Shown: positions 1-17,384, counted from the first letter of the stretch. The stretch: DNA of 64,000 nt from Verrucomicrobia bacterium UBA6176 (GCA_002422905.1 DITU01000107.1:134633-198632); one strand, 5' to 3'. A program made the numbers and translations. The notes: generated by a model from the sequence alone, not told the origin.

Positions 1-617
1 CGTTGTGCGAACTCGGCGAGGTTGGCGTGGCTTCCCAGTTCGGCGCTGTAACGGAACATGGCCACCAGGCTTTCGTAGCTCGACGCGAGCTCCTCGCTCA
101 TTTCGCTGAGCGCCCGTTCGGCATCGGCCAGTTTGATTTCCAGATCCGCGGTGTGATCGAGTGGCAGCGGTTCGGAGGGCTGGAGCCGGGGACGTCGGAG
201 GCGCAGCACGTTGCCTTCGGGACCGCGCAGGTATTCGGAGGAGTCGGTGAGGGATTTGATCAGGAAGATTCCGCGGCCGCCTTCGGTCTCTTCATCGGGG
301 AGGTCCACTTCGGTGGGGAGGTCGAATCCGGCGGTATGATCGAAGACCCGGGCCTCGACGTGGAGTTCGCCGAGGAGGATTTCGATGCGGACGGGTTTCA
401 GGCGTGCGGGTCCGGCGGCGTACTCGACGGCATTGTTGGCGGCCTCGACGAGGGCGAGTTCCCAGGCGGTGGTTTCCGAGTCATCGATCCGCCACTGGTT
501 GAGCCATTCCCGGACGAGGCGTGCGGATTCCCGGACCGCGGGGAAGGAGCAATCCGACTCGACGCAGAAAGTCTGGCAGGGAACCGACCGGGCAGGAGGT
601 TGGGGCGTGGGATTCAA
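1..617 (-). CDS. RsbW/SpoIIAB-like HATPase (anti-sigma-factor-type Ser kinase) domain protein; its 3' end runs off the window
   Basis: Absent from the ORF track because it has no stop inside the window. My translation of the minus strand from about 617 to 1 is uninterrupted: ..FCVESDCSFPAVRESARLVREWLNQWRIDDSETTAWELALVEAANNAVEYAAG..VRIEILLGELHVEARVFDHTAGFDLP..EGGRGIFLIKSLTDSSEYLRGPEGNVLRLRR. A coiled-coil-like linker follows (LEIKLADAERALSEMSEELASSYESL). This is the N-box and G-box pattern of RsbW-type kinases. No ATG is available; the first start candidate after the STAS stop is TTG at 617-615. Confidence 0.6.
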   Translation of the reverse strand, partial: MNPTPQPPARSVPCQTFCVESDCSFPAVRESARLVREWLNQWRIDDSETTAWELALVEAANNAVEYAAGPARLKPVRIEILLGELHVEARVFDHTAGFDLPTEVDLPDEETEGGRGIFLIKSLTDSSEYLRGPEGNVLRLRRPRLQPSEPLPLDHTADLEIKLADAERALSEMSEELASSYESLVAMFRYSAELGSHANLAEFAQ

Positions 618-633
618 GGCGGCGTGGGGTTCA

Positions 634-936
634 TCAGGTGACGATGTCGAAGATGCGGTGGAGTCGGGTGAGTTCGAGCACCTGAAGGACGTTGGGAGTG
701 GGATTGTGAAGGCGGACCTGACCACCCCGCGAGCGGAGGGTCTTGTGCAGGGCGACGAGGACACCGAGACCGCTGCTGTCGAGGAAGGTCACGGTGGACA
801 GGTCGAGGTCGAGGACCTGGTGGGCGGGTTGGAGAGCGGCGCGGATCGCGTCCCGGATCTGTGCTGCATTGGCGGCGGTGATCTCGGTGAGGGCGGAGAC
901 TTTCAGGTTGTTGGTGTCAGTGTGTGTGATTTTCAT
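634..936 (-). CDS. STAS-domain anti-sigma-factor antagonist (SpoIIAA/RsbV-like)
   Basis: The track ORF 634..990 was trimmed to the ATG at 936 (MKITHTDTNNLKV..). It carries the canonical motif DLSTVTFLDSSGLGVLVALHK with the phosphorylatable Ser, and it is about 100 aa long. Confidence 0.85.
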   Translation of the reverse strand: MKITHTDTNNLKVSALTEITAANAAQIRDAIRAALQPAHQVLDLDLSTVTFLDSSGLGVLVALHKTLRSRGGQVRLHNPTPNVLQVLELTRLHRIFDIVT

Positions 937-956
937 GGGGAAAAAGGCTGGGGCGA

Positions 957-2183
957 TCACGGGGTGGGCGGGATGCGAAGGACGGCCCAACGCAGGATGG
1001 ACCGATCCACAGCCCGCGATCGGCGTGACGCATAGTAGCTGGAATGGGCGCGGGCCTCATCGTCGAACCGGTCCGCGCAACCGTGGGCATCGGCGAGTGA
1101 GACCAGTCCGACCGGAGCCGACAGCCAGAGTTGTTCGAACTCGGTTTCGAGGGTGGCGGCCTGTTCGCGGGTGATGGGGCGGTTGCCGACCCAGGTGAAC
1201 TCCCCCACGACGATCTTCCAGAGCTGGGGCCATCGTCGGGCGAGGCCGCGGAAGCCATTCAGTTCGTGGTAGGTTGATTCGCGGAGACCGGAGGTGGTGA
1301 TGGCGGAGGGAACGACGGCGCGGAGGCGGGACACGAGGGACTGGCGCGACCAGATCGCCAGTACGGCGGCGACGAGGGGAATGGGGAAGGTGAGGATCAG
1401 GAAGGCCAGGGCGGCGAGACGGCCGAGGGGAGAGGATTTCCGGTTGAACGCGGATTGTCCGCGGAGATCGCCGAGGAGGAAGGGATCGACGATTTCGGTG
1501 AACGATCCGGTTTCGTGGTTCAGGAGGCCATCGGCCCAGGCGAGGGAGCGGGTCACGGAGGTGAAGGAACCCACATAGGTGTTGGGACCGACCCATGATC
1601 CGGTGACTTCCGCTTCGGTATCGATCATTGCGGAGTCCTCGACATAGGCGTGGGGACCGACGACGGCGTCTGAGCCGATCCAGACGCTCTGCCCGATCCA
1701 GCATGGGGCATGAAGCCTGGCGGTGGGTGCGGTCCGCGAGTGGAGACCAACCCAGATTCCGGGGCTGAGTTCGCGGGAACCGACGCGTTGGGAATGGAGG
1801 GCGGGAGCGACGTGTCGGAGGGCGTCGAAGAACCCGGAGGGACGGTCGAACAGGGGCAGATCCGGATGTCCCGGCAGATGATCCATCAGGATGGCCCGGT
1901 CCACTCCGAACCGTGCCCGGGCCTTCTCCTGGGAAAGCTCCGAGGCTTCCGAGATCACCTGGATCCGCAGGCCCCATTCCTCGCCAGCGCCGACCGCGGT
2001 GCGGATGGAATCGGGGCGGTCGGAAGCGAGAATGATCACCTCGCGGAAACCGGAATCGGAGAGGTGCGCCAACCAGCGGGAGAGGAAGGTGCGACCGAGC
2101 ACGGGGACGAGGGCGAGGGGAGTCAACCTGCCGAGCATGCGTGCCTCGGGGCGTTGATCGGGGCAGATGACGACCGTTTTCAT
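957..2183 (-). CDS. Fusion protein: nucleotidyltransferase-like N-domain, left-handed beta-helix (hexapeptide) region, TM segment, and bacterial sugar-transferase-like C-terminal domain
   Basis: The N-terminus VVICPDQRPEARMLGRLTPLALVPVLGRTFL resembles NTP_transferase. The middle has hexapeptide-like repeats (IGSDAVVGPHAYVEDSAMIDTEAEVTGSWVGPNTYVG). A hydrophobic segment follows (LAALAFLILTFPIPLVAAVLAIW). The C-terminus RRWPQLWKIVVGEFTWVGNRPIT..VGLVSL matches the DELPQLxNVLxGxMSxVGPRP..GLTG core of Bac_transf. The ATG at 2183 overlaps the upstream stop (ATGA). Confidence 0.75.
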   Translation of the reverse strand: MKTVVICPDQRPEARMLGRLTPLALVPVLGRTFLSRWLAHLSDSGFREVIILASDRPDSIRTAVGAGEEWGLRIQVISEASELSQEKARARFGVDRAILMDHLPGHPDLPLFDRPSGFFDALRHVAPALHSQRVGSRELSPGIWVGLHSRTAPTARLHAPCWIGQSVWIGSDAVVGPHAYVEDSAMIDTEAEVTGSWVGPNTYVGSFTSVTRSLAWADGLLNHETGSFTEIVDPFLLGDLRGQSAFNRKSSPLGRLAALAFLILTFPIPLVAAVLAIWSRQSLVSRLRAVVPSAITTSGLRESTYHELNGFRGLARRWPQLWKIVVGEFTWVGNRPITREQAATLETEFEQLWLSAPVGLVSLADAHGCADRFDDEARAHSSYYASRRSRAVDRSILRWAVLRIPPTP

Positions 2184-2932
2184 GTGCCTTTGCCGAACAG
2201 GATGGCGGGGATGGTCTTGAGGAGGAGCCAGAGGTCCTTCCGGAAGGACTGGCTTTCGATGTAGCGGACGTCGAGGTCCACCTGTTCCTCGAAGTCGATG
2301 GCATTGCGGTCGCCGATTTCGAAGAGGCCGCCGTGACGTTCGCCGACCTGCCAGAGGCAGGTGATGCCGGGTTTCACATTGAAACGGCGGCGATGCCGTT
2401 GCTCGTACAACTCGACCTCACGACGGACGGGGGGACGTGGGCCGACGATGGACATCTCGCCGCGGAGCACGTTCCAGAACTGGGGCAGTTCATCGAGCGA
2501 AGTCTTGCGCAGGATGCGGCCGACCCGGGTGATGCGGGGATCGTCCTTCATCTTGAAGGTGATCCCTTCCTTCTTTTCGTTCAGCGCCAGCAGATCCTTG
2601 AGGCGGGCCTCGGCATCGACGCACATGGACCGGTACTTGAGCATCCTGAACTCGCGGCCATGGAGTCCGTAACGGGTCTGGCGGAAGAACACCGGCCCGC
2701 CATCGACCTTGACCAGCAGGGCGATCATGAGGAACAGCGGGGAGAGGACGATCAAGGCGGCGAGACTGATGACGACATCGAAGAGACGCTTGAGGAAATA
2801 GGCGAAGCCGGTGACACCATTCCAGGCGTACCGTTTCCACGTCACGTAGAGGTTCAGGCGGGCACGGCCGATCGGGGATCGGGCGGAAAGCAACCGGTTC
2901 GCCATCCGCTCCCGGATGTCGTCATCGTTCAT
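2180..2932 (-). CDS. Undecaprenyl-phosphate sugar phosphotransferase (bacterial sugar transferase, WbaP/EpsB-like small PGT)
   Basis: The track ORF was trimmed to the ATG at 2932 ([10 protein letters not shown]..). It has a TM helix ([22 protein letters not shown]) and the motifs [55 protein letters not shown] and [10 protein letters not shown]. The start overlaps the upstream stop (ATGA). Confidence 0.9.
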
Positions 2933-3570
2933 GGCAACGCCCTCCCCGGATGGGATTCGATCCCGGCCATCGACTTCAGGCGGCCTGCGATTTCCTGGAC
3001 CTTCGCCGCGGTGAGTGGAGCCTGGATGACCTCGGATGCGAGTCGGCGTTGAGGTTCGACATGGTCCCGGTGCATGGGTTGGACCTGGTGCAGGAACTGT
3101 CTTCGTACGGCCTCGGGCGATCTGCCGCGTTCCCGGGCATCGCGGGCGAGACGCCGTTCGAGGCGTTCGGCCTCCCCGCATTCCAGGAAGCAGCTCCAGT
3201 CGAAGCGGGACCGGATGTCCTCATGATGGAGCAGCCAAAGGCCGTCCCAGATCATCACGGGCTTGGGGATGAGCTGACGCGGGAGGGGATGGCGGGTGTG
3301 GGTGTGGAAGTCATAGGAGGGAACTTCGGCTGCCGCGCCTTTCCGGAGCCGGTCGAGCACCAGTCCCAATCTCGTCCAGTCAATGCTGGCCGGGTCATCG
3401 AAATTGACAGCATCCCGCTCGGCAGGAGGAAGCGCCGAAAGATCGCGGTAATAATCATCGAGACTGATCCGCGCTGACACCTGTGGGAGCGCTTCGAGCA
3501 GGTGGTCGGCGAGCCAGGATTTGCCGGATCCGCTGCCGCCGACGATGGCGATATGGAGATTCGGAGTCAT
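2929..3570 (-). CDS. Uridine kinase / phosphoribulokinase-family P-loop kinase
   Basis: It has a Walker A motif (IAIVGGSGSGKSWLA), then SLDDYYRD and FDDPASIDW, typical of the Udk/PRK family. It has ATGA overlaps at both ends. Confidence 0.7.
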   Translation of the reverse strand: MTPNLHIAIVGGSGSGKSWLADHLLEALPQVSARISLDDYYRDLSALPPAERDAVNFDDPASIDWTRLGLVLDRLRKGAAAEVPSYDFHTHTRHPLPRQLIPKPVMIWDGLWLLHHEDIRSRFDWSCFLECGEAERLERRLARDARERGRSPEAVRRQFLHQVQPMHRDHVEPQRRLASEVIQAPLTAAKVQEIAGRLKSMAGIESHPGRALP

Positions 3571-4769
3571 TGGTCGGAGCCGGTCCGTCCCAAGGCGGAC
3601 ACCCTTGAGAACATGGCTTCGAGGTCACTGATATAGGTCTCGAAATCGTAGCGCTCGCTCACCAGGCGCAACCCGGCCTCGCCCAGGGACCGGGCACGGT
3701 CCTTGTCCGCGAGCAATTCATCAATGCGGGCTGCGTAGGCATCGCGATCCATCCAGGGGACCAGATAGCCGTTGTGCCCGTCGATCAGCCAGTCGCGGAT
3801 GCCACCGGCATCGAAGGCGACGACGGGGAGGGCGTAGCGCATGACTTCCAGACCGATGGTGGCGATGGGTTCGGGCCAGACGGAGCTGAGGGCGACCACA
3901 GTGCATTCGCGGTAGTACTGGGTGAGTTCCTCCTGGGGAACGAATCCCTTGAAGGTGACGCGGCCTTCGAGTCCCAGTTGGCGGGACAGTTGTTCGCAAT
4001 GGGACTTGTGGTTGCCATCGCCGAGGATGATGCACTCGAAGGGTTGACGGACGCGGGCCAGAGCTTCGAGGAGGACATCGACGCCTTTGCCGCGGATGAT
4101 CTGGCCGGCGTAGAGGATGAGGTTCCGGTTGCTGAAGGAGCTGCGGAGGTTGGGATCGCCCATGCGTGGGACCGGGGCGTGGATCTCAATGCGGGCTGGA
4201 TCGAATCCATTCTGGAGGAGTTCATCCCGCATATAGGTGGTGACGACGATCATCCGGTGGAAGCGTCGGTTGAGTTCGATCTCGCGGCGTTTGTCGGAAT
4301 AGCTGACCCAGCGGAGGGGGAAGCCGGGCCCGGACTTCCTGACGGCGAAGGCGAGGCAGGGAACGAGGCAGGCGAGGGAGGCGGGGCGGGTGCAGATCTT
4401 GCGGGTGAAGTAATCGTACTTGTAGCTGCGCATGCAGTAGATGTCGTGGTCATGGACCATGCGTGCGAGGGGTTGACCGGATTCGACGAGTGCGCCGATG
4501 ACCGACAGGTCGGCCATCTTGTGCACATAGACGGCGTCGGGCTTGAAGGCGGCGAGGGCCTTTTGGACGGTGAGGTTGTTGTCGTGGTCACCGAGGGCTG
4601 CACGGAATGGGAAGGTGGAATCCCAGGCGGATTCGCTTCGACCGGTGGAAGGGCCATGAAGGATTCCGAGGGTGTGTCCGCGCCGTGCCAACTCGGTGGC
4701 GGTGATGAAGGCATTGGCCTCGGCGCCGGCGAGGGCACCATACCGTTCATGCACGTAAAGGATTCTCAT
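3567..4769 (-). CDS. Glycosyltransferase family 4 (GT-B, EX7E type)
   Basis: The sequence begins [21 protein letters not shown].. and ends with C-terminal SSVWPEPIATIGLEVMRYALPVVAFDAGGIRDWL, an E-x7-E-like motif. It has ATGA overlaps at both ends. Confidence 0.9.
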   Translation of the reverse strand: MRILYVHERYGALAGAEANAFITATELARRGHTLGILHGPSTGRSESAWDSTFPFRAALGDHDNNLTVQKALAAFKPDAVYVHKMADLSVIGALVESGQPLARMVHDHDIYCMRSYKYDYFTRKICTRPASLACLVPCLAFAVRKSGPGFPLRWVSYSDKRREIELNRRFHRMIVVTTYMRDELLQNGFDPARIEIHAPVPRMGDPNLRSSFSNRNLILYAGQIIRGKGVDVLLEALARVRQPFECIILGDGNHKSHCEQLSRQLGLEGRVTFKGFVPQEELTQYYRECTVVALSSVWPEPIATIGLEVMRYALPVVAFDAGGIRDWLIDGHNGYLVPWMDRDAYAARIDELLADKDRARSLGEAGLRLVSERYDFETYISDLEAMFSRVSALGRTGSDQ

Positions 4770-7429
4770 GGCAGGCAGGGGGTTGAGTCAGGGGAACCAT
4801 CGAGGTGGGTTGAAAGCCAGTCCGCGAGGAGGCACACCCCGGTTTCTGCCGCCTCCCGCAGCGGGGTCAATTGCTGATGGCACTCCTCCATCTGGTCCTT
4901 GGAAGCGAGGGTTTCCATTTCCTGGAATTGTTGGCCGAGCTCGGTGAGGCCGAAGGTGGCGGCGATGCCCTTCAGGGCGTGCGCAAAACGTTCGGCTTCC
5001 ACGGCGTCGCCCCGATGGATCGCCTCGGAAACTTGATGGAGGCGGTCGGGGAGTTCGGAGGCGAACTCGCGGACGATCCCGGAGACGGTTTCCAGGTCCA
5101 ACTCCTCGACCAACCGGTCGAGGGCGGGCAGGAGCGGAGTGGGGTGGGTGGGCGGGGTTTTGGTGGCCGAGGCAGGGCCGCCGTGCAGCTTCAGGGGCTT
5201 GAGCACCCGCAGCATGGTGGTGCGGAGGTTGGACAGGGTGAAGGGTTTGGCGATGTAGTCATCCATGCCGATGGAGAGGCAACGTTCGCGTTCGCCGATG
5301 AGGGCATTGGCGGTCAGGGCGATGATGGCAATGCGGCGTGGGGGCGGATTGGCGGCCTCGATCCGACGGATGGACTGGGTGGCCTGGTAGCCGTCCATTT
5401 CCGGCATGTTGCAATCCATCAGGATGAGGTCGTAGGGCGTCTTCTGGAGGCTGCTGAGGACTTCGAGACCGTTCTGGGCGACGTCGGCCTTGATCCCGAG
5501 TTCCTCGAGCATGAGGAGGCAGAGCTTGCGGTTGATGGGATGATCCTCCGCCAGCAGGACCCGAACGCCCTCGATGGGTTGGAGATCATCGGAGCGGCGT
5601 TCGACCGGGCGGGGGAAAGCGGGGATGGAGTGTTCGGGCGTGGTTCCGTCCTTGCCACCTTCGACGGCGGTCACCAGGGCATCGAACAGGTAGGATTGTT
5701 TGACGGGTTTCAGGAGGATGTTCTCAAAGACATCGAGGGTGGCCTCGTTGTGGGTGGCGGTGGTGGAGGGATGGGCGAGAAGGATGCAGTGACACCTGGT
5801 TTTACGCTCGATGAGGTAGTTGATGAGTTCCCGGCCACCGAGCGAGACGGTGGCATCGTCACAGATCACGAGAGGTTTGCGTCCGTCGGCGAGGGCTTCC
5901 CCGAGATGTAGCATGAGTTCCTGCGGGGAAGCCGACTCCCTGAAGGTGATGTTCCAGCTGTGGAATTGTTCGCGGAGGGATTCCGCCTGGATCATGGATT
6001 TGACGCAGAGGAGGACATTGGCACGCACGAGGGCGGGATGGCTTTCGTGTGCGGGTGGCGGTCGGAGTGATTTCAGGGGGATCTCGAACCAGAAAGTCGA
6101 GCCATGGCCAAGCTCACTTGTCACTCCGATCCGTCCGGACATGAGTTCGACGAGGCGCCTTGAGATGGCGAGGCCAAGTCCGGTTCCGCCGAACCGGCGT
6201 GACGAGGATTGATCCGCCTGGACAAACGGCTGGAACAGGCGTTTCAACTGGGGATTGGTCAGGCCGATCCCGGTATCCTGCACCTCGAATCGGATCCAGA
6301 TCCGGAATTCCTCCGCCCTGATGACCTGGACGCGGAGAGTGATCTGACCGTTCGGGGTGAACTTGACGGCGTTGCCCACCAGGTTGACGAGGATTTGCCG
6401 GAGCCGTTCCGGATCGCCGAGCACCCGGTCGGGAACGTCGTGCTGGACGATGGAGGCCATTTCGAGGGTTCGTTCCGAATCCCGGGTGGCGGCGACTTCC
6501 AGAACGGCATCGAGCACCGGACGGAGGAGGAATTCCCGGGGCAGGATTTCCAGTCGGCCTGCCTCGATCTTCGAGAAGTCGAGGATGTCATCGATGATGC
6601 GGAGGAGGGCGTGGGTACTCTGGGAGATGGAATCGGTGAACTCGCGTTGGCGTGCTGCGAGGGGTGTCTTGCCGAGCAGTTCGGTCATGCCGAGAACCCC
6701 GTTCATCGGGGTGCGGATCTCGTGGCTCATGGTCGCCAGGAAATCGCTCTTGGCGCGGCTTGCCGCCGCGGCTTCCTCGGCGAGGGCATTGGCGCGGTCC
6801 CGTTCCTTCTCCAGGCTGATCCGGGACTGGTCGAGGTCCTCGATCATGCTGAGCATCACCCGGCGGCTCTGTTCGAGTTCGGAGGCGCGCCGGACCAGAT
6901 CGTCCGAAGTCTGTTGGAGGCGTGACTCGGCCACCTTCTGTTCCGAGATGTCGGAGAGGATTCCGATGACTTCATTGCCCTGGCCCGGGCTGGGGACGGG
7001 TTGAAGGAGGACGCCGCAGATCATTCCCGTATCGAAAACCGGGAAATTGAACTGCTGGATCTCGCCATGGAGGGCCTTTTCGAATCGCGCCAGATGGGCC
7101 GGATCCGGAAACAGTGCCGACAACGGGCGATCCTCGAGATCTGCGGGGCGATGCCCCAGTCGGGCAAGGAGCGCGCCGCGGGCGAGGAGGATCCGGAAGC
7201 CGTCGTTGGTCCGGGAGCAACGGATGACGACGTTGGGCTGAAGCTCGAGGGTTTGCCGGAAGAATCCGTTGGCCGTGGCCGGCGTGGAGCCGTGGCCTGG
7301 CGGGGATTGTTCCCCGGTCCTGGGCTGGAAGGACTGTTCGATGGCATCGAGCAGATGATGCAGTTCCGGGATGTCCGGGATCCCGCTGGGGAAGTATTGG
7401 GCGATCAGTTTCCTGAGCGGATCATTCAC
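4766..7429 (-). CDS. Soluble hybrid sensor histidine kinase: PAS-like, HisKA, HATPase_c, degenerate receiver-like, REC and Hpt domains
   Basis: It has an H-box ([15 protein letters not shown]), an N/G1/G2 pattern ([23 protein letters not shown]), a REC domain ([28 protein letters not shown]) and an Hpt motif ([13 protein letters not shown]). I saw no TM helix. The start is GTG at 7429 and overlaps the upstream stop by 8 nt. Confidence 0.9.
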
Positions 7430-8513
7430 CGTGCGGTGGGGTCGGGGGTGGGGTCACGGGGACACGGTCTGAGGCAGCCGACGGATAGAGGGGCGTGCGT
7501 CCCATCTCGCGGCAGAGTTCGTTGACCTCGTGCTTGAGTTCGAGGACGCGGTGTTCGCGGTTCATCATCACCCGGTTGACGCGTTCCAGTTCGGACATGG
7601 CGTTCCGGATCCGATCCTCGTCTTCCTTGCGGGCGGTGATGTCCGATTGAATGGCCATGAAATGGGTGATTTCACCGGCGTCGTTGCGGATGGGTTTGGC
7701 CTCGATGGTGATCCAGTATTTCCGGCCGAGCCTGGATTGGTTGAGGATTTCCACGGAGAAACCGACTCCTTCGCGGACGCTGCGGCGCATCAGTTCGACG
7801 GTGGCGGCATTGGTCTCGGGTGCCTGCAGCAGGGAACCCGGGGTCTGGGCGCGGACCTCGGCAAGGGAGTAACCGGTGAGACGGGTGAACCCGTCATTGA
7901 CCCATTCGATGCGGCCCCGGGCGTCGGTGAGGACGACCGCATTGGTGGTGAGTGCGGCGATGAGTGCGAGTTTGCGCTGTTCGGCATCCTGATCGCGGAG
8001 GCGTTCATTGGCGGCGCGAAGTTCCGCGCGTTGGCCGGTCAGACGATTCGCCAACTCCTTGGAGTCAGCCAAGGCCTGGTGCTGGGCCTGGACGATATGC
8101 AAGAGGTCGAGTCCGGGATCGTGGATTGGAAAATCATTGATGTTGAGTCCGAACCGGGCGATGGCGTTGGCCTCTCCCAACCAGGGTGACACCAGGAAGA
8201 CGAGCACCCGACCGGAATCAACCGGAAGCAGTTGTCCGCGGAATCGCAGGCTGGAAGCGGGATGCAACAGGAGGAAAAGCTGTTGCTGATTCTCCATCAG
8301 GACCGCGTGGTCCAACGCCACATCCGGCCGGATGAGTTGGAAGACATCCTTGAACAGTGCACCCGGAGTTGCCTCGGGACAGTAACGGGCGAGCGATGCT
8401 CCCACCTGAACGATGCGCAGGTCGCTATCGACGGCGAAATGAAACGGAAAAACGGCATGGAACTGATCGGGCGCCAGTCCGATCTCCAGGGTCGGTATGG
8501 CCGACAGTTTCAT
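7422..8513 (-). CDS. HNOBA (heme-NO-binding-associated) plus PAS domain signalling protein with no recognisable output domain
   Basis: The N-terminal half (FHAVFPFHFAVDSDLRIVQVGASL..FQLIRP..LRFRGQLL..VFLVSPWL..GLNINDFPIHDPGLDLL) matches the HNOBA pattern of soluble guanylate cyclases. A coiled coil follows, then a PAS domain (GRIEWVNDGFTRLTGYSLAEV..HFMAIQSDITARK) and a C-terminal helix (NREHRVLELKHEVNELC). I chose the ATG at 8513 because it forms an ATGA overlap with the H-NOX stop; the track start is 8531. Confidence 0.8.
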   Translation of the reverse strand: MKLSAIPTLEIGLAPDQFHAVFPFHFAVDSDLRIVQVGASLARYCPEATPGALFKDVFQLIRPDVALDHAVLMENQQQLFLLLHPASSLRFRGQLLPVDSGRVLVFLVSPWLGEANAIARFGLNINDFPIHDPGLDLLHIVQAQHQALADSKELANRLTGQRAELRAANERLRDQDAEQRKLALIAALTTNAVVLTDARGRIEWVNDGFTRLTGYSLAEVRAQTPGSLLQAPETNAATVELMRRSVREGVGFSVEILNQSRLGRKYWITIEAKPIRNDAGEITHFMAIQSDITARKEDEDRIRNAMSELERVNRVMMNREHRVLELKHEVNELCREMGRTPLYPSAASDRVPVTPPPTPPHGE

Positions 8514-9079
8514 GCAACCGGAGATTTCCATTCCACCAGGAAGAGGTCGTGATCCGCGCCCTCCGCCTTGCTCTCGAGCACCGTTGCCGTGGCCTCGGTC
8601 CCGAACCGTTTACCGAGGCCTTGTATCAGACCGACGACGAAATGGGTCAGGCCGGCGCGGTGCGTACGGTAGTGGAGGTGCAGGGAGTTGGGGCCGACAT
8701 CGGTGCAGGCGAATCGGGGTGGTTGGAGGTTGGGAAACACCATGACGACCCGGGTGTGGAAGTTGGGGAGGTTCAAGAGGAATTCGGGGAGGCTGGAACC
8801 GCCGGCGCTCATCAATCCTCCATAGCCTTCCTCCGCGGTCCGCAGCACCCAATGTTCGCCAAAGGCCCGCAGCAAGGCGTCCTGCGGCGCGCCCAGTACC
8901 GAACTCGCCGCCGCCACGAGTTGAAAGGTCATTTCGTCGGCATACGCCTCATTGCTGATGAACATTTCGACATCAACGCCGGCCTCCCGCTTGATGCGTT
9001 CCCACACTTCGACGCCGTGGTGGAGAACAACCATCTGTTCGATGCCGCGATTCACCATGCCGTACATGTCGGCGGACAC
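8510..9079 (-). CDS. hnoX: H-NOX (heme nitric oxide/oxygen binding, HNOB) sensor protein
   Basis: The N-terminal MYGMVNRGIEQMVV is the classic H-NOX start. A proximal-His context is present (LLNLPNFHTRV), as is a conserved Pro region (FPNLQPPRF). The heme-propionate motif is HYRTHR, a YxTxR variant of YxSxR. The protein is about 185 aa. The true start may be the second Met, at 9067. Confidence 0.85.
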   Translation of the reverse strand: MSADMYGMVNRGIEQMVVLHHGVEVWERIKREAGVDVEMFISNEAYADEMTFQLVAAASSVLGAPQDALLRAFGEHWVLRTAEEGYGGLMSAGGSSLPEFLLNLPNFHTRVVMVFPNLQPPRFACTDVGPNSLHLHYRTHRAGLTHFVVGLIQGLGKRFGTEATATVLESKAEGADHDLFLVEWKSPVA

Positions 9080-9114
9080 TAAACCCGGGCCATTGAACTC
9101 TTCCAGCCTCTTGA

Positions 9115-9579
9115 TTGCGGTTCATGGGTCATGGATTGCCCATTGCACGGAATCGGATGTCGACATTGGGCAACAACAGCATTGCTATCGAACCGGTGAC
9201 TCCGGGCGAATCCATGGCCTGCAGGCGTTCCGGGATCTTGCTGGGCATGGCCAATCTCCCGGCCTGTTTGCTCGTCTTCATCGGGGCATTTCTGAGGGAG
9301 TCCGACCTGTTCTGGAGAAACGAGGGGGGATGGTCGATCTGGATGCGGAACCTGGTTGAATTCGCCTTCTATCCGGTGTTTGTCGTCCTGCTGGGATCGG
9401 TGACCCTTTCCGCCGGTTGGATAGTCATTGGCAAGCCAGCCCAATCGCCGTTGGGACTCCTGATCTGGGGCCTCGTGGTGGTTCAGGTCGCCTCCCTGTT
9501 TGGAATCGCCGGGGTGGTGCTGTTGAACAACGTTCTCAATGTCCTCGCCGGTCGCCCCGTCCACGATCACGGGTTCTGA
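9115..9579 (+). CDS. Hypothetical small membrane protein (start uncertain; internal Met codons at 9214 and 9247)
   Basis: This is the only plus-strand ORF in the gap between the two minus-strand operons. It has three or four hydrophobic helices (LPACLLVFIGAFL, FAFYPVFVVLLGSVTLSAGWIVI, LGLLIWGLVVVQVASLFGIAGVVLL). I recognise no family. Confidence 0.35.
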   Translation: MRFMGHGLPIARNRMSTLGNNSIAIEPVTPGESMACRRSGILLGMANLPACLLVFIGAFLRESDLFWRNEGGWSIWMRNLVEFAFYPVFVVLLGSVTLSAGWIVIGKPAQSPLGLLIWGLVVVQVASLFGIAGVVLLNNVLNVLAGRPVHDHGF

Positions 9580-13700: not shown

Positions 13701-13861
13701 ACACCCGGGCGGTCCGGATCGGCATCGGTTGGAGCTTCACCGGGGTGGGAATCGCGGGCGGAATAAGTGCCGGGGGCGGGCGTGGCCGGGGTGACCGGGT
13801 TGGTCTGTTCCCGTTTCTGGCGGAGATCGCGGACGCGAAAGGGTTCGGGGGTGTCACTCAT
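10706..13861 (-). CDS. Fusion of a Wzz/GumC-type polysaccharide co-polymerase, a degenerate BY-kinase-like P-loop domain and a C-terminal Wza-like OPX module
   Basis: The track ORF 10706..14047 was trimmed to the ATG at 13861 (MSDTPEPFRV), an 8-nt overlap with the upstream stop. TM1 is WYWIPLGALVLATPAFFAGL, followed by a long coiled-coil periplasmic region and TM2 (IILVTVAAGFLGALLALLGICI). A P-loop-like region follows, with GEGRTT in place of GxGKT. A third hydrophobic segment (GTPLGLICLLGSSVLA) precedes Poly_export/SLBB sequence (LTVGAGDVFNLQIY..VGPDGRISYLEAQSLPVAGLTVDEMRDKL..YYLMGAVVDRGAYTL). There is no in-frame stop between the modules. Confidence 0.85.
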   Translation of the reverse strand: MSDTPEPFRVRDLRQKREQTNPVTPATPAPGTYSARDSHPGEAPTDADPDRPGVPGKAGGFALPFDPFRLITALLARWYWIPLGALVLATPAFFAGLNRFSTSYSGSVQLIRRDVTDSMKASQAGEAFKPRQINVATIVSVMQSGRFLHEVGTNAQPPVSSSFLRGALLVRPERDTDLIHISLKGHSSPRAIADLLNLFARKAAEFSARMQAEEATELNGFLKDQITRIDTELAVVEAELLEFANSSDFLGEDREINAYLRELGDIEIRLEEALANQNTLGFRIAAAERELTRQNPASLRVSQAREELSLLRARFTDQNPQVQDAAAQLASLEAETNVPEPGAATNNPAFRYSENTIANELYLQVLQMRGDQEGTRQQISQMTLFRDRVKARLRELPEKAQRFAQMVARQQSLSATRDMLGGRQREAQNFVDTPPGFYRLFAPATPASIETGSRWRKIILVTVAAGFLGALLALLGICIREIADTRVMTAGDLARILRIPVLARLPTNLTADAEGVAQWRFRTWAKLMRSIQPVDPSRLTIAFASADAGEGRTTVIRILRDAAFERGMSTVTVVNAPCADATIRSMPLAAILQDPGLLSDFMRDAGPHRIELSFDASWNWTLENRSLWLRAVSHWESLPPFVLLVELPPLSSLNPVFAAELMPTLVWITNSGQSQANELSQMTQTLDAADIRPVGAILNREPSSAWQLPALQRLTGTPLGLICLLGSSVLAEDSPSPVPPGRLAASAPQPTIAPWQERLTVGAGDVFNLQIYGNKDSLRSAVPVGPDGRISYLEAQSLPVAGLTVDEMRDKLDEVLSKYHRHARSIVTPVEWRSKQYYLMGAVVDRGAYTLDRPLTLIEAVARARGVDTGLYQQNTIEMADMTRAFIVRDQKRLPVNFEQLFSKGDLSQNILIEPGDYLYFPSSTVNEVYVLGWVRSPGPLGLAGERTLIGVLTVRGGFAPTAYKKRVLVVRGSLQAPQTFVVDVDAILSGRARDFDLEPKDLIYVAEKPWQRAEDLLELAVSSYVQAVTATWVGLNVRPATPRAILPRIP

Positions 13862-14741
13862 GGCGTGGCGACTGGTGACGGCGCAGGTCGGCGGCGACCG
13901 TTTGGACATGGGTGGAGGCAACTTCGCGGGCGCCCTGGAGCCAGGCTTGTTCGAGGGCGAGTTTGGCGAGGCGATTGATGCGGCGTGGAATGCCCTGGGC
14001 CTCGGCGAACACGACTGAGGCGGCTTCCGATGCAAACACGCGGCCATCGGTGTGGCCGGCGGCGATCAGTCGGTGACGGAGGTAGGAACCCACCTCGTCT
14101 GCCGGGAGGGATTGAAGATGATACCGGAGACTGATGCGTTGCTCGATGGCCGGGCTGGCATCGACAAGCCGGCGGAGTTCGGGTTGCCCGACGAGTACGA
14201 GGGTGAGGAGATGGGTTCCCCCGCCATTCCAGTTGGTGAGCGAACGCAGTTCGTGGAGTGTTGCCGCAGTCATGTCCTGAGCTTCATCCAGGATGAGTAC
14301 CAGATGTCGGCCGCCGCGGGCGATCCGGCGGATCATGGCTTCCAGCATTTCGCATCGGGCGAGGGTCCCGGCCGGGGGCACCGGTGCGCCGGGATCCAGG
14401 CGGTGGATCAACGACGCGATCAATTCGGGGAAAGGGAATCCCGAGTTTTCCAGGGTCAACACCTGGAAGCGCGCGGGATGGATGGTGGCGGTGAACATGG
14501 CGCGGGTGAGGGTCTTGCCGCAGCCGATCTCGCCGGTGAGCAACCCGATGTTCATGCTGGTCTCGGTGACCAGGTAGAGCAGGCGATCCAGGGCTTCCCG
14601 ATGGTCGGGGCTGGCGTGGAAGAAGCGGGTATCCCAGGTGGCCTCGAACGGGCGTTCCCGGAGACCCCAGTGGGCCAGGAGTCCGGGGGCGGAAACCGGA
14701 TCCGGGAGGCCTGGGGAGGGCAATTCAACGGGCGCGGGCAT
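13854..14741 (-). CDS. ExeA-like AAA ATPase (the type associated with PEP-CTERM/EPS loci)
   Basis: It has a Walker A motif (LTGEIGCGKT) and a Walker B motif (HLVLILDEAQ), then LVLVGQPEL and C-terminal GIPRRINRLA, typical of the ExeA/GspA-like AAA_22 family. I chose the ATG at 14741 (MPAPVEL..); the track start is 14849. Confidence 0.8.
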   Translation of the reverse strand: MPAPVELPSPGLPDPVSAPGLLAHWGLRERPFEATWDTRFFHASPDHREALDRLLYLVTETSMNIGLLTGEIGCGKTLTRAMFTATIHPARFQVLTLENSGFPFPELIASLIHRLDPGAPVPPAGTLARCEMLEAMIRRIARGGRHLVLILDEAQDMTAATLHELRSLTNWNGGGTHLLTLVLVGQPELRRLVDASPAIEQRISLRYHLQSLPADEVGSYLRHRLIAAGHTDGRVFASEAASVVFAEAQGIPRRINRLAKLALEQAWLQGAREVASTHVQTVAADLRRHQSPRHE

Positions 14742-15873
14742 CAACAATCCTCCGGTAGATGGCCAACGTCTGCTCTGCATTGCTTCCCCAGTCGAATCGG
14801 CGGGCGTGCGCCAGTCCCCGTTCGGAGAGCAGGGAACGACGTTGCGCATCGGTCGTCAACCCGGTCATCACCGTGGCCATTCCGGCGACATCTTCAGGTT
14901 CGATCACGGCGGCGGCATCACCGATGACTTCCCGCAAGGATCCGCGGGTGGAACTGATGACGGGAACGCCGCAGGCCATGGCTTCGACCGGAGGGAAACC
15001 GAAGCCCTCGAACAGGGACGGGTAGATGAAGAGGCTGGAGGCGCGGTAGAGGTTGGGCAGGGCGGCGTCCTCGACGAATCCGAGAAAGCGGATATCCGCC
15101 GCGAAGGGCGAGGCGGCGGCGGTTTCATGGACGGTGGCGGCGCCATGCCAGTCACTGCCGCCGAGGGCCAGGACCCAGTCCGAGCCGGTGGCGGACTTGA
15201 ACTGGTTGAAGGCGTGGATCAGCCGCACATGGTTCTTGGCGGGGTGCTCGATGCGGGAAACGTAGAGGAAGAAGGGCTGGTTGAGACCCCATCTGGCAGC
15301 GGCTTCACGCCGGGCATGGTCGACGTTTCCCGGCTTGAACCGTTCATGATCCAGACCGTTCCAGACCACATCCACGCGTTGGCGTGGAATGCCGAAGAAA
15401 TGTTCGATGTCGCGCGCGGTGTTGTCGCTGACGGCGATGAGTGCGTCCTGACGCCGGGCGAGGTGTTTGACGAAGACCCGGCCGTACAACATCCGCTTCC
15501 AGTCATATTTGCCGCGGACATGGAAGGGCGCGAGGTCGTGGATGGTGCCGACGACGGCGCAGGGTTTCCGCCAGAGCAGGCGCCGATAGCTGGGGGAATG
15601 GAGGACGTCGAGTTGCAGTCGGCGGGCGAGGCCGGGCAGATGGCTGTGGTGCCAGGCGACATTGCGGGCGGCGGGACGGAATTGTTCGGATACCGGAACG
15701 ATGCGCATGCTGTCGGCGGCGAAGCCGAGCAGGGGAATATCCTCTTCGAGTGTGAACAGGTGGAACTCGTGTTGTGCCGTGGAGGGGAGGAAGGCGCGCA
15801 ACAGGGCAAACACGTACTGGGCGACTCCGGTCTTGCCGCGTTGAATCACCGAGGTGGAGATCCCGATCTTCAT
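14725..15873 (-). CDS. Glycosyltransferase family 4
   Basis: The real gene is the 3' part of track ORF 14725..16734 and starts at the ATG at 15873 (MKIGISTSVIQRGKTGVAQYV..). The C-terminus SLFEGFGFPPVEAMACGVPVISS is an EX7E motif. The start forms an ATGA overlap with the upstream stop. Confidence 0.9.
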   Translation of the reverse strand: MKIGISTSVIQRGKTGVAQYVFALLRAFLPSTAQHEFHLFTLEEDIPLLGFAADSMRIVPVSEQFRPAARNVAWHHSHLPGLARRLQLDVLHSPSYRRLLWRKPCAVVGTIHDLAPFHVRGKYDWKRMLYGRVFVKHLARRQDALIAVSDNTARDIEHFFGIPRQRVDVVWNGLDHERFKPGNVDHARREAAARWGLNQPFFLYVSRIEHPAKNHVRLIHAFNQFKSATGSDWVLALGGSDWHGAATVHETAAASPFAADIRFLGFVEDAALPNLYRASSLFIYPSLFEGFGFPPVEAMACGVPVISSTRGSLREVIGDAAAVIEPEDVAGMATVMTGLTTDAQRRSLLSERGLAHARRFDWGSNAEQTLAIYRRIVDARAR

Positions 15874-17384
15874 GGGGCGGGTGCGGGGGAATCGAGGAGG
15901 TAGCCTTCGAGGCGGGTGATGCGGAGGACGTTCCGGACTGGAGGACTGGGATTGGTATAGGTCAGCCGCTGATGGCGGCGCCCGGTCTCCCGCTTGAATC
16001 TCAGGAGCAATCCGACGCCGGTGCTGTCGATGAAATCGACCTGGGAAAGGTCGAAGTTCACCGGGGTTTCGCAGGAGATGGAAGAGATGCGGGACTGGAT
16101 GCTCTGGGCGAATTCGCCGGCGTTGGCGGCGGTGATTTCGCCCCGCCAGGAGACGGTCGGGGTTGAAGGGGGGCCGGCCAACTGGACAGGAGGTTGCTCG
16201 GGTCGCAGCGAGAGCATCTGGAGGGCTGTGGATTGATCCGGGGCGGAGGGAAAGAATTCGAGGAGCTTCATCCCCTGCAGGATGGAGGTGACGACGGCCG
16301 GAATCGAAATCAGGACCAGCCCGTGCTTCGATTCGCGCGCGGTCTTGCGGAGTCGGACCAGCAATCCGATCCCGGTGCTGTCGATGAACGTCACTTCCGA
16401 AAGGTCCATGACGACATCGGATCCACTCACCTTCTCCAGCCATTCCTTCTGCACGACGGTGGCCGACGCGGCGTCGATACGGGTCGGGGGAACGATCAGG
16501 ATATGGGGAGCGGATGCATGGTTCGGGGGTGGCCCGGACGGGATGGGGTCCGGCTGGATTGCGGCCGGGCGCGGGGAGCACTGGGCCGGATGCGGGGGGC
16601 GGCTGCGCATCTGCCACCATTGACGCAGGATGGCGGTGCTGAAAACCCGGAGGTCCTTGGAGTAGCGCCGGACCAGCCGGGACGGTTCCTGGCACATGCG
16701 GTAGATCCATTCGGTCCCCGTCTTCTGCATCCACATCGGGGCCCGATTGAAGGTGCCGGCGAGGAAATCAATGGTGGCGCCCACCCCGACACTGAACGGG
16801 ACTCCCGCCGCCTGGAGGTTCATCCAGATCCATTTCTCCTGCTTGGGGCATCCGAAGGCGACCAGAAGGATGTCCGGGGCGGCCTGCCGGATGCGCTCCA
16901 GGATGTCGGAATGGTTCATGTCCAGGAGGGGACTGAACGGCGGTGAGTAGGCACCGACCAACTGGAGGGCGGGATGGAGTTCCCGGGTGCGCGACGCGGC
17001 AGCGGCCACGCTCTGCTCGGTGCCTCCGAGGAAGAAGACCTTCCAACCCTCACGTTCGGCACGTTCGAGCAGGAGGGGGACCAGGCCGGACCCGGTGACG
17101 CGTTCAGGAAGGGGGTTCCCGAGGAAACGGGAGGCCCAGACGATCGGTTGGCCATCGGCCATCACCAGGTGGGCGTCGAAAAGGATGCGACGCAGTTCCA
17201 CGTCTTCGAGGGATTGGACGAGGAAATCCACGTTGGCTGTCGCGGCGTAGTGTGGTCGACGCGAACGGACCATCTCGGCGATGAGGTCGAGTGTCTCCTG
17301 GGTCGTTACGTTGTCGAACACCACTCCAAGAACAGCAACGGGGGGCTTGCAGGGCCGGATCGGCGATTGTCCTGCGGGGGGCAT
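15870..17384 (-). CDS. WecB/TagA/CpsF-family (GT26) glycosyltransferase fused to two C-terminal STAS domains
   Basis: The GT26 core is VLGVVFDNVTTQETLDLI..TANVDFLVQS..VMADGQPIVWASRF..VFFLGG..LLVAFGCPKQEKWI. A Pro-rich linker follows, then two STAS units, each with the FIDSTG(I/V)GLL motif (MDLSEVTFIDSTGIGLLVRLRK and FDLSQVDFIDSTGVGLLLRFKR). I chose the ATG at 17384; the track start at 17423 is a TTG. Confidence 0.85.
   Translation of the reverse strand: MPPAGQSPIRPCKPPVAVLGVVFDNVTTQETLDLIAEMVRSRRPHYAATANVDFLVQSLEDVELRRILFDAHLVMADGQPIVWASRFLGNPLPERVTGSGLVPLLLERAEREGWKVFFLGGTEQSVAAAASRTRELHPALQLVGAYSPPFSPLLDMNHSDILERIRQAAPDILLVAFGCPKQEKWIWMNLQAAGVPFSVGVGATIDFLAGTFNRAPMWMQKTGTEWIYRMCQEPSRLVRRYSKDLRVFSTAILRQWWQMRSRPPHPAQCSPRPAAIQPDPIPSGPPPNHASAPHILIVPPTRIDAASATVVQKEWLEKVSGSDVVMDLSEVTFIDSTGIGLLVRLRKTARESKHGLVLISIPAVVTSILQGMKLLEFFPSAPDQSTALQMLSLRPEQPPVQLAGPPSTPTVSWRGEITAANAGEFAQSIQSRISSISCETPVNFDLSQVDFIDSTGVGLLLRFKRETGRRHQRLTYTNPSPPVRNVLRITRLEGYLLDSPAPAP

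Follow-up and report, generated by a model that had tools for sequence, protein, structure and literature searches.

In Vibrio fischeri, the NO/HnoX-controlled kinase HahK feeds SypF, which in turn controls the kinase/phosphatase SypE (PMC12369376, PMC4517449). SypE phosphorylates the STAS protein SypA, and in this way the Syp polysaccharide is gated post-transcriptionally (PMC12369376, PMC4517449). In Anabaena sp. PCC 7120, a partner-switch-like module (HenR / Alr3423 / All4160) regulates a STAS-Bac_transf enzyme; STAS-Bac_transf fusions are phospho-regulated in this organism and have been reported to be rare outside the cyanobacteria (PMC13555669). The NosP-NahK-HptB-HsbR-HsbA pathway of Pseudomonas aeruginosa leads from an NO sensor via STAS phosphorylation to the switch between motile and biofilm states (bioRxiv 10.1101/2025.09.24.678285).

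Here, we analysed a stretch of 64,000 nucleotides from Verrucomicrobia bacterium UBA6176 (GCA_002422905.1 DITU01000107.1:134633-198632), referred to as the window. The region at its left end is probably the upstream part of an approximately 30-kb locus for exopolysaccharide (EPS), conserved in Verrucomicrobiota and equipped with its own post-translational control circuit. We infer the mechanism of this circuit from gene content and domains, from catalytic and phospho-acceptor motifs that are intact, from the tight packing and the conserved cassette, and from gene fusions in relatives.

Gene order and extent of the packed unit

The left end of the window carries the following genes, listed in the direction of transcription, with one further gene located beyond the window.

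8510..9067, minus strand: H-NOX, predicted haem NO sensor (185 aa from the ATG at 9067; Pfam HNOB, E 4e-46)
7422..8513, minus strand: HNOBA-PAS adaptor (363 aa; Pfam HNOBA, 95.6 bits, and PAS; coiled-coil tail at the end)
4766..7429, minus strand: hybrid histidine kinase (887 aa; PAS-like N-terminus, HisKA with His236, HATPase_c, REC with Asp672, Hpt with His817)
3567..4769, minus strand: GT4 glycosyltransferase (400 aa; Pfam Glycos_transf_1 and Glyco_transf_4; conserved cassette position)
2929..3570, minus strand: P-loop kinase of the PRK/uridine kinase family (213 aa; Pfam PRK, E 1e-25)
2180..2932, minus strand: small monotopic phosphoglycosyl transferase (PGT), priming enzyme (250 aa; full Bac_transf, 229.8 bits)
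957..2183, minus strand: gene 7 (408 aa; Pfam Hexapep and a weak match to the C-terminal half of Bac_transf)
634..936, minus strand: single-domain STAS protein (100 aa; Pfam STAS, E 4e-20; predicted phospho-acceptor Ser54 in DSSG)
1..617, minus strand: first 205 codons of an RsbW-type serine kinase-GAF-SpoIIE/PP2C fusion (TTG start at 617; Pfam HATPase_c_2, 3-617)
L001 13348-13734, beyond the window: stand-alone REC (128 aa, 89 bits; 4-nt overlap with the kinase-GAF-PP2C gene)

A Pfam search combined with direct reading of the sequence confirmed all nine minus-strand genes in the order given by the initial annotation, from H-NOX to the RsbW-like kinase, with matches to HNOB, HNOBA, HisKA/HATPase_c/REC/Hpt, Bac_transf, STAS and HATPase_c_2. 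All junctions quoted there were likewise found: five ATGA overlaps (8510-8513, where the HNOBA-PAS start overlaps the H-NOX stop, 4766-4769, 3567-3570, 2929-2932 and 2180-2183), an 8-nt overlap at 7422-7429 with the letters GTGAATGA, and a 20-nt gap at 937-956. Another gap, of 16 nt, separates the STAS stop (634) from the TTG start at 617. Gene boundaries from an independent gene caller on the same contig were identical.

While packing and junctions thus stand, the unit is not restricted to nine genes. It comprises 16 genes over 17.8 kb without any gap larger than 20 nt, and the part reaching beyond the window edge encodes the kinase-GAF-PP2C protein, REC, Phosphodiest, GT4, Wzx, GT4, GT2 and a protein of unknown function. 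The stand-alone REC overlaps the ninth gene. Therefore, the statement that the locus has no response regulator is correct only within the window. The ninth product, previously described as an RsbW-like kinase, is a window-edge fragment consisting of the first 205 residues of a HATPase_c_2-GAF-SpoIIE protein of 594 aa, which is complete on the same contig (L001 11567-13351; HATPase_c_2 78.6 bits, SpoIIE 139.3 bits). Kinase identity, missing response regulator and nine-gene extent are all left-edge artefacts of the window. The reported lack of GGDEF/EAL genes applies to all genes in the 21 kb that we read on the contig. A scan for consensus promoters and terminators gave 0 promoters, with 2.0 expected, and 12 terminator-like sites, with 11.0 expected; a single transcript for the signalling and glycan genes is presumed from the gene spacing.

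The H-NOX module

The longest open reading frame of the H-NOX gene spans 8510-9079 and opens with GTG at 9079, and the gene call gives 185 aa. The ATG at 9067 is the more likely start, because all 14 homologues begin with M/VYG(M/L)VN. The product matched HNOB (Pfam) with 157 bits. Its closest matches were the structures of the Nostoc H-NOX protein Alr2278 (E 6e-59), followed by the β-1 subunit of soluble guanylate cyclase (sGC; E 5e-35). In addition to the HNOB domain, both hallmarks of H-NOX proteins were found: His104 aligned to Alr2278 His105, the proximal haem-ligating His, and the propionate-binding motif reads Y133-R-T135-H-R137, with Thr in place of the Ser of Y-x-S-x-R. The pattern Y-x-[ST]-x-R is present in 13 of the 14 H-NOX homologues from the loci. 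In the sequence alignment, Phe occupies the position of Alr2278 Met144, which we take to be that of Tt Tyr140, the distal-pocket Tyr of the O2-binding Thermoanaerobacter type. Absence of a distal-pocket Tyr hydrogen-bond donor, unlike in Thermoanaerobacter-type H-NOX, would exclude O2. We tentatively read the protein as NO-selective, since it is sGC/Nostoc-like, has the proximal His and apparently lacks the distal Tyr.

Relatives of the HNOBA-PAS adaptor are about 500 aa long and contain two PAS domains. In several other relatives HNOBA is fused to the kinase, forming a single HNOBA-PAS-GAF-HisKA-HATPase-REC-Hpt chain (L005, L057, L070 and L074). The N-terminal 225 aa of the hybrid kinase gave just a faint PAS_9 match. 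The remainder contains all residues and boxes of an Hpt phosphorelay, that is, the H-box His (SHEIRTP, His236), the N, G1 and G2 boxes (NLVGNA, DTGIG, GGTGLGL), the receiver Asp (LILMD, Asp672) and the Hpt His (HALKG, His817). The kinase is not a member of the NahK/ErcS family as defined by the NCBIfam model NF041832, against which it scored 147.7 bits, under the cut-off of 400.

Glycan genes and the STAS switch

The PRK-family kinase scored 161.6 bits against the NCBIfam uridine kinase model, under the 180-bit cut-off. The catalytic DE-LPQ motif of the small PGT is intact, and 61 of 65 homologues keep it. Gene 7, which immediately precedes the STAS gene, is made up of an NTP-transferase-like domain, a left-handed β-helix, a re-entrant membrane helix and a PglC-like domain; its AF2 model (pLDDT 88) matches the folds of GMPPA/B, eIF2B and PglC. 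The catalytic Asp-Glu dyad of a PGT was not found: none of 78 homologues has DE-LPQ, and xRWPQ is present instead. Judged by these motifs, gene 7 appears to encode a catalytically dead PGT, a conserved pseudo-enzyme.

The single-domain STAS protein aligns with SpoIIAA, RsbV and TM1442 over the DS(S/T)G site, and comparison with the SpoIIAA and RsbV structures predicts Ser54 to be the conserved phospho-acceptor Ser of a partner switch. The Asp-Ser pair is kept in 78 of 87 cassette STAS domains. The HATPase_c_2 serine kinase and the PP2C/SpoIIE phosphatase of such a switch are both present, here in one chain, and 47-54 of 56 homologues retain the PP2C metal motifs GGDFYD, DxxG(H/K)G, TDG and DDxT. 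Neither the 21 kb surrounding the module nor the conserved cassette contains a gene for a σ factor, an anti-σ factor or a DNA-binding regulator, and no σ factor or other defined partner for the kinase/STAS pair was found. That the solo REC has this switch as its target is assumed from gene adjacency, and the GAF domain of the switch protein suggests a second input.

The GT26-STAS-STAS block

Further upstream, the window contains a second group of polysaccharide genes.

17431..18843, plus strand: Wzy-type polymerase / O-antigen-ligase-like membrane protein (Pfam Wzy_C; divergent from the GT26-STAS2 gene)
15870..17384, minus strand: GT26 (WecG/TagA/CpsF) glycosyltransferase with two C-terminal STAS domains (504 aa; Pfam; Ser336 and Ser454 in DSTG)
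14725..15873, minus strand: GT4 glycosyltransferase (Pfam; start overlaps the GT26-STAS2 stop, ATGA)
13854..14741, minus strand: AAA_22 ATPase (Pfam; start uncertain, 14741 likely)
10706-14047, minus strand: Wza-like polysaccharide export protein (1113 aa; Pfam Poly_export and SLBB)
9612-10709, minus strand: Wza-like polysaccharide export protein (365 aa; Pfam Poly_export and SLBB)

The second STAS-bearing enzyme seen earlier in the GT26 gene indeed exists, and Pfam shows two STAS domains. As anticipated, the sequence has a phospho-acceptor Ser in all three STAS domains, the stand-alone one and both in GT26. The GT26-STAS family is abundant, and most members keep DS(S/T)G. This block is the second conserved module of the same EPS locus: the order GT26-STAS2/GT4 is the same in L076, L077 and L078, GT26-STAS-STAS immediately follows REC in L076, the pair of Wza-like proteins recurs in relatives, and the Wzy-type gene has the same divergent placement in L077 and the ERZ1426671 contig. 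Relatives of the AAA_22 ATPase are 276-277 aa long. L077 and L078 encode a σ54 activator without a detected REC close to their Wza blocks. No SypG-type σ54 response regulator was found in the window from 1 to 24.5 kb or in L001.

Conservation across Verrucomicrobiota

A cassette survey anchored on gene 7 yielded 72 loci, nearly all labelled Verrucomicrobiota. The common cassette has the order GT4-PRK-PGT-gene 7-STAS-kinase/GAF/PP2C-REC-phosphodiesterase-GTs-flippase. The kinase and PP2C are present in 48 of 58 loci, the solo REC in 46 of 58 and Phosphodiest in 47 of 54. Conservation of the linkage, which the initial annotation had named as the point to be checked, was borne out: H-NOX, HNOBA and the hybrid kinase lie directly upstream of the PGT/gene-7/STAS cassette even in relatives that are only 41-59% identical, and GT4 and PRK usually precede PGT/gene-7/STAS in these H-NOX-linked loci. 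All H-NOX/HNOBA-positive loci that reach far enough downstream (n=11) contain the kinase-PP2C gene and the solo REC. These data support the view that the signalling and glycan genes are a conserved unit and not a chance neighbourhood.

The H-NOX module was found in 11 of the 37 loci with at least 9 kb of upstream sequence, and about two thirds of the cassettes are without it. Such cassettes are accompanied by PAS/GAF hybrid kinases or have no kinase next to them. The H-NOX/HNOBA/hybrid-kinase module is a swappable, optional input. Because of these cassettes, and because the H-NOX/HNOBA pair in L079 is not followed by a cassette, the link is frequent, but not obligatory. In one variant, STAS-REC fusions downstream of an HNOBA-type kinase take the place of STAS, kinase-PP2C and REC. 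Haloferula luteola YC6886 carries the locus, and for H. sargassicola there is a record of an HNOBA-PAS homologue; the two offer a possible route to experiments.

Proposed circuit and alternative explanations

According to our model, the sGC/Nostoc-like H-NOX would bind NO and the HNOBA-PAS adaptor would pass its state on, altering autophosphorylation of the hybrid kinase. Phosphate may then travel from His236 via Asp672 and the Hpt His817 to the stand-alone REC beyond the window, and phosphorylated REC would switch the bifunctional kinase-GAF-PP2C protein between its kinase and phosphatase modes. This mode is predicted to set the phosphorylation of Ser54 in the small STAS protein and probably also that of both GT26 STAS domains. 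Unphosphorylated STAS would permit polymer assembly; its targets would be the priming PGT together with the dead paralogue of this enzyme, gene 7, and, in cis, GT26. By analogy to V. fischeri, NO may lower kinase output and EPS production, a sign that the present data do not fix. A route from gas sensor through phosphorelay and STAS to EPS had already been suggested for this DNA; the conserved unit and the retained Ser residues speak for it, whereas the H-NOX input turned out to be optional and the circuit to be known in substance. Only tentatively do we extend the model to a self-contained route from gas sensor to glycan enzyme that bypasses transcription, in which phospho-STAS acts through gene 7 as a 'receiver' subunit together with the live PGT, and through the GT26 STAS pair. 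If true, this would reveal on what kind of target SypA-type STAS proteins act, a question of long standing, and phospho-STAS control of EPS enzymes would not be specific to cyanobacteria.

The canonical role of RsbV/RsbW/RsbU modules is transcriptional partner switching. In agreement with this role, the switch could sequester or release a σ factor, anti-σ factor or σ54 activator encoded elsewhere, so that expression and not enzyme activity is regulated; two relatives have a σ54 activator gene next to the GT26-STAS block, at its Wza end, which recalls SypG of syp and fits this explanation. We nevertheless consider it unlikely: the 21 kb around the module and the conserved cassette are devoid of candidates for such a regulator, kinase and phosphatase share one chain, as they do in SypE and HsbR, both of which signal through a STAS protein, an EPS enzyme of the same locus carries fused STAS domains, and the Anabaena precedent is one of direct enzyme control.

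The preferred reading, direct control of EPS enzymes by the phosphorelay, also has to be weighed against two explanations that disconnect parts of it. The H-NOX, HNOBA and kinase genes could be co-transcribed passengers that signal to receivers elsewhere, with the switch being driven by GAF or other kinases. The many cassettes without the module, the solitary pair in L079 and the fact that Hpt hybrid kinases often serve several receivers, as HahK does with SypF and LuxU, are all compatible with this. However, cassette-adjacent kinases are usually HK-REC-Hpt hybrids that need a terminal receiver, the solo REC overlapping the switch gene is the only conserved receiver of the cassette, and REC is even fused directly to STAS in the variant downstream of an HNOBA-type kinase, which makes passengers quite improbable. 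Alternatively, the STAS domains could be ligand-binding or scaffold modules, with the stand-alone REC and not Ser phosphorylation as the real regulator. About ten loci have STAS, with REC present or absent, but no kinase-PP2C gene nearby; therefore, STAS can work without local Ser phosphorylation. The STAS-REC fusions and the syp-like loci of V. vulnificus and V. parahaemolyticus, which have SypA without SypE, point in the same direction. But Asp-Ser is conserved in most STAS domains of both the cassette and the GT26-STAS family, and most loci retain the kinase and PP2C catalytic motifs, so that we regard a ligand-binding or scaffold role as very improbable.

Comparison with known systems

The initial annotation was not aware of any such circuit, which is wrong in substance in view of the V. 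fischeri Syp and Anabaena precedents. The match to syp is at the level of logic: an NO-binding H-NOX acts on a kinase, followed by an Hpt phosphorelay and a receiver that toggles a bifunctional Ser kinase/PP2C. The target is a single-domain STAS protein phosphorylated on a conserved Ser and active when unphosphorylated, as predicted here, and both loci encode GTs, a Wza-like exporter, a flippase, a polymerase and a Bac_transf PGT. In contrast to V. fischeri, where hnoX-hahK is a separate operon, H-NOX and the kinase are located within the EPS locus, and an HNOBA-PAS adaptor is present. SypE combines kinase, REC and PP2C in one protein, whereas the verrucomicrobial locus has a kinase-GAF-PP2C protein and a separate 128-aa REC. 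The SypG-type σ54 regulator of syp has no counterpart in the part of the window and in L001 searched for it; conversely, the dead PGT encoded by gene 7 and the GT26-STAS-STAS enzyme distinguish our locus, as does the phylum.

In Anabaena, too, a receiver-coupled SpoIIE-type phosphatase and an RsbW-type kinase set STAS phosphorylation on an EPS enzyme, and control is exerted directly on polysaccharide synthesis and not on a σ factor, as we propose here. There, STAS is N-terminal on a Bac_transf PGT, and the genes lie dispersed. Here, STAS (634-936) and Bac_transf (2180-2932) are separate genes and not an N-terminal fusion of the All4160/XssP type, STAS lies beside PGT/gene 7, two C-terminal STAS domains are found on GT26, and the whole chain including the sensor forms one locus. 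The P. aeruginosa pathway shares the NO sensor, hybrid kinase, Hpt, receiver-controlled PP2C/kinase and STAS phosphorylation, but its sensor is NosP and not H-NOX, HsbR is a single REC-PP2C-kinase chain, and the output is FlgM or a diguanylate cyclase instead of EPS enzymes. Animal sGC likewise pairs H-NOX with HNOBA; here these are separate proteins, and the effector is a histidine-kinase phosphorelay and not a cyclase.

Each link has a precedent: the step from H-NOX to a kinase, that from Hpt to a receiver-controlled PP2C/kinase, and that from phospho-STAS to polysaccharide. The model systems have scattered genes, with key partners still missing (the SypA target, the Anabaena kinase input), whereas here the whole chain recurs across a phylum in one packed locus, its parts tied together by HNOBA-kinase, STAS-REC and GT26-STAS-STAS fusions. 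Gene 7, PGT and GT26 are concrete candidates for the binding partner of an EPS-controlling STAS protein, and direct phospho-control of glycan enzymes would extend to a second phylum. Taken together, we judge the circuit to be a variant of known logic, with all components in cis, differing architectures and a conserved dead PGT directly upstream of the STAS gene.

Extent of the H-NOX gene run

According to Pfam, the nine minus-strand genes at the left edge of the window encode all the domains assigned to them in the initial annotation:

8510-9079, minus strand, HNOB (H-NOX)
7422-8513, minus strand, HNOBA and PAS
4766-7429, minus strand, HisKA-HATPase_c-REC-Hpt (hybrid kinase)
3567-4769, minus strand, GT4
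2929-3570, minus strand, PRK/uridine-kinase family
2180-2932, minus strand, complete Bac_transf phosphoglycosyl transferase (PGT)
957-2183, minus strand, gene 7 (408 aa), Hexapep and a weak partial Bac_transf match
634-936, minus strand, STAS
3-617, minus strand, HATPase_c_2

The reported junctions were also borne out by reading the sequence (five ATGA overlaps, one 8-nt overlap of sequence GTGAATGA, and a 20-nt gap at 937-956). A 16-nt gap lies ahead of the TTG start at 617, and an independent gene caller gave identical gene boundaries on the same contig. The H-NOX start is more likely the ATG at 9067, because the homologues all begin with MYG(M/L)VN. NCBIfam provided no family-level names; every specific model scored under its cut-off (uridine kinase, 161.6 vs. 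180; EPS_sugtrans, 287 vs. 296; NahK/ErcS, 148 vs. 400).

We read the same contig past the left edge of the window (locus L001). In full, the ninth gene encodes a 594-aa HATPase_c_2-GAF-SpoIIE protein, which joins a serine kinase and a PP2C phosphatase in one chain. It is followed, with a 4-nt overlap, by a stand-alone receiver (REC; 128 aa, 89 bits). Therefore, the earlier statements that no response regulator is present and that the ninth product is an RsbW-like kinase were both artefacts of the window edge. The genes downstream of REC encode, in order, a Phosphodiest-family protein, GT4, a Wzx-type flippase, GT4, GT2, and an unknown protein of 384 aa; beyond them lies a convergent NRPS gene. 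The run that starts with H-NOX and ends with the gene of the 384-aa protein comprises 16 genes in 17.8 kb, with gaps of at most 20 nt throughout. This last gene (L001 19806-20960, outside the window) has no Pfam or NCBIfam match; its product contains a GGGYGRGEGG...DLE motif that by eye resembles a Pol-beta-type nucleotidyltransferase. A scan of 1-18000 for consensus promoters and terminators found no excess over the shuffled expectation and is uninformative either way on transcript structure.

Upstream of H-NOX is a 544-nt gap, in which Rfam found no riboswitch or leader; the sole Rfam match in the whole window is a tRNA (46564-46645, minus strand). The gap contains a small divergent ORF (9124-9579, plus strand) for a 151-aa multi-pass membrane protein without Pfam match, located between Wza and H-NOX. 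Weak homologues are found after Wza in the loci L077 and L078 of relatives; in L079, one immediately precedes H-NOX and shares its strand. Past the gap, the H-NOX strand encodes Wza, a long Wza-like protein, an AAA_22 ATPase, GT4, and the GT26 glycosyltransferase with two STAS domains noted before, which was located at 15870-17384 (minus strand); a divergent Wzy gene follows.

Conservation of the cassette and variation of the sensor module

HNOBA-PAS homologues with 41-51% identity were examined in four contigs, and all four were linked to PGT, gene 7, and STAS. The gene order begins with H-NOX, HNOBA-PAS-PAS, FIST, and HK-REC(-Hpt); a second HK-REC, GT4, and PRK may or may not follow, ahead of PGT, gene 7, and STAS. 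On the longer Haloferula luteola contig, kinase-GAF-PP2C, REC, Phosphodiest, and GT4 come next after STAS. The strain H. luteola YC6886 contains the cassette as locus L056. Using gene 7 as an anchor and scanning one genome per species, we obtained 72 loci, almost all labelled Verrucomicrobiota, which were annotated using profiles derived from the four initial loci. Across these loci, the cassette reads GT4-PRK-PGT-gene 7-STAS(-STAS)-kinase/GAF/PP2C-REC-Phosphodiest-GT4-Wzx-GT4-GT2-unknown. Kinase and PP2C are present in 48 and a solo REC in 46 of the 58 loci with enough downstream sequence, and the Phosphodiest gene in 47 of 54. Gene-order strings place STAS after gene 7 in nearly every locus reaching that far; the count of 39/71 for STAS directly after gene 7 is an undercount resulting from stop-to-stop ORF coordinates. 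PGT, gene 7, and STAS are consecutive in almost every locus having all three.

The proposed linkage thus held in relatives for the cassette (72 loci) but not uniformly for the H-NOX module, which is present in 11 of the 37 loci with at least 9 kb of upstream sequence; one further locus has FIST only. Alternative front ends are PAS/GAF hybrid HK-REC-Hpt kinases (L031, L067), and in L015 and L016 a kinase is inserted further downstream. Some loci have no adjacent kinase, with GH9, GH16, or MoxR genes instead, and in L079 an H-NOX/HNOBA pair does not lead into the cassette. We read this pattern as a fixed exopolysaccharide (EPS)-plus-switch cassette whose sensory front end can be exchanged, H-NOX being one common choice.

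The sensor module of the window is a reduced version: HNOBA-PAS has 363 aa and one PAS domain, compared to about 500 aa and two PAS domains in L002-L004, and the module lacks both the FIST-domain gene and the additional HK-REC gene of several relatives. Some relatives encode a DHH-CBS-DHHA2 phosphoesterase between REC and Phosphodiest (L077 1-848; contig ERZ1426671). A large GH9 protein (CelD_N and Glyco_hydro_9) is encoded immediately upstream of H-NOX-less cassettes in L028, L043, L048, and L050, and likewise downstream of the orphan H-NOX/HNOBA pair (L079 7128-10958).

The GT26-STAS-STAS block (GT26-STAS2, GT4, AAA_22, and two Wza-like genes) varies in position. In the window, it lies on the upstream side of H-NOX. 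In two contigs, it adjoins the downstream end of the cassette, and in L076, it comes right after REC. One genome has it on a separate contig (L078 vs. L074). A sigma-54 activator gene, in which REC was not detected, adjoins its Wza end in L077 (18112-19434, minus strand) and L078 (17249-18589, minus strand); the window showed no counterpart. A PEP-CTERM/XrtA EPS locus was also considered as an identity for the gene cluster, but yielded only weak sub-threshold GT/PGT matches, and no exosortase was seen.

Catalytic sites, phospho-acceptor sites, and domain fusions

The hybrid kinase contains the H, N, G1, and G2 boxes as well as the receiver residue Asp672 and His817 of Hpt. The best match of H-NOX is Nostoc Alr2278 (E 6e-59), followed by sGC beta-1. 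Its His104 and Y133-x-T135-x-R137 align with Alr2278, and the position of Alr2278 Met144 is occupied by Phe, which, given the general rules of H-NOX selectivity, would fit an NO-binding, O2-excluding H-NOX. In the small STAS protein, Ser54 within DSSG aligns with the SpoIIAA/RsbV phospho-site, and Asp-Ser is retained in 78 of 87 cassette STAS domains. Both GT26 STAS domains carry DSTG (Ser336, Ser454), a motif found in 114/120 first domains and most second domains of the GT26-STAS family. The PP2C metal-binding motifs are retained in 47-54 of 56 homologues.

Pfam identified HNOBA-PAS-GAF-HisKA-HATPase_c-REC-Hpt as one chain in L005, L057, L070, and L074. Given these single chains, HNOBA-PAS, a protein of its own in the window, would almost certainly work with the hybrid kinase. 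On the metagenomic ENA contig ERZ1426846, two consecutive STAS-REC fusions (243 and 232 aa) directly follow gene 7 and stand in for STAS, kinase-GAF-PP2C, and REC, with an HNOBA-type kinase upstream. Judged by their architecture, these fusions tie the receiver to the STAS output.

Gene 7 as a candidate STAS partner

Gene 7, named 'hypothetical protein' or 'sugar transferase' by its sources, had been described as an NTP-transferase/PGT fusion. An AlphaFold model from 35 homologues was confident (pLDDT 88) and matched GMPPA/GMPPB, eIF2B-type NTP-transferase/beta-helix proteins, and PglC. The protein combines an NTP-transferase-like domain, a beta-helix, and a PglC-like fold. The catalytic Asp-Glu dyad of PGTs (DE-LPQ) is replaced by xRWPQ in 78/78 homologues; the neighbouring true PGT retains it in 61/65. 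On this ground, we rejected the PGT half of a bifunctional enzyme. In the NTP-transferase half, the usual N-terminal, G-rich nucleotide loop (G-x-G-x-R) seems to be missing by eye. Since the dyad is lost in all homologues, gene 7 is best read as a conserved pseudo-enzyme. Because of its constant place, with the live PGT on one side and the STAS gene on the other, it is our preferred candidate for the STAS partner.

Other features of the window

The single ORF at 25333-39219 (plus strand; 4628 aa) contains Laminin_G_3, PA14/GLEYA, CARDB, CarboxypepD_reg, and Big_9 domains and resembles a giant surface adhesin. At 52035-54133 (minus strand), a Ni_insertion (LarC-like) gene next to an AIR-carboxylase (LarB-like) gene suggests nickel-pincer cofactor synthesis. 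Two proteins combine an N-terminal methylation motif with DUF1559 (22466-23521, plus strand; 39678-40457, minus strand).

Proposed signal flow and related systems

Signalling would most likely run from NO-bound H-NOX via HNOBA-PAS and the hybrid kinase to Hpt, and from there to the stand-alone REC. REC would then set the balance between kinase and phosphatase activity in the GAF-containing switch protein, and thereby STAS serine phosphorylation and the EPS enzymes. No sigma factor partner is encoded near the module.

Our literature search turned up no relevant paper on either H-NOX or partner switching in Verrucomicrobia. The circuit is less novel than initially claimed, given precedents in V. 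fischeri, P. aeruginosa, and Anabaena. Of the systems described so far, the Syp pathway of V. fischeri comes closest; there, NO-binding HnoX inhibits HahK, which feeds SypF (PMC12369376). SypF controls SypG and SypE. The STAS protein SypA is phosphorylated or dephosphorylated at Ser56 by SypE, and its unphosphorylated form allows biofilms to form (PMC4517449; PMC12369376). NosP-NahK-HptB-HsbR-HsbA of P. aeruginosa follows the same logic with other outputs. In Anabaena, the HenR/Alr3423/All4160 module places an EPS enzyme directly under phospho-STAS control, with a phosphorylation-regulated STAS domain fused to a Bac_transf PGT (PMC13555669). In contrast, PGT, gene 7, and STAS are separate consecutive genes in the window. 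By architecture, the locus falls outside the SypE, HsbR, and All4160-type proteins.

Taken together, the gene set is real, conserved, and more complete than could be seen within the window, but less unprecedented than claimed. Its value lies in candidate targets for EPS-controlling STAS proteins and in a putative sensor-to-enzyme chain encoded in one place. From its gene content, the locus is predicted to work like the Syp, NosP, and Anabaena systems, but it is a distinct arrangement.
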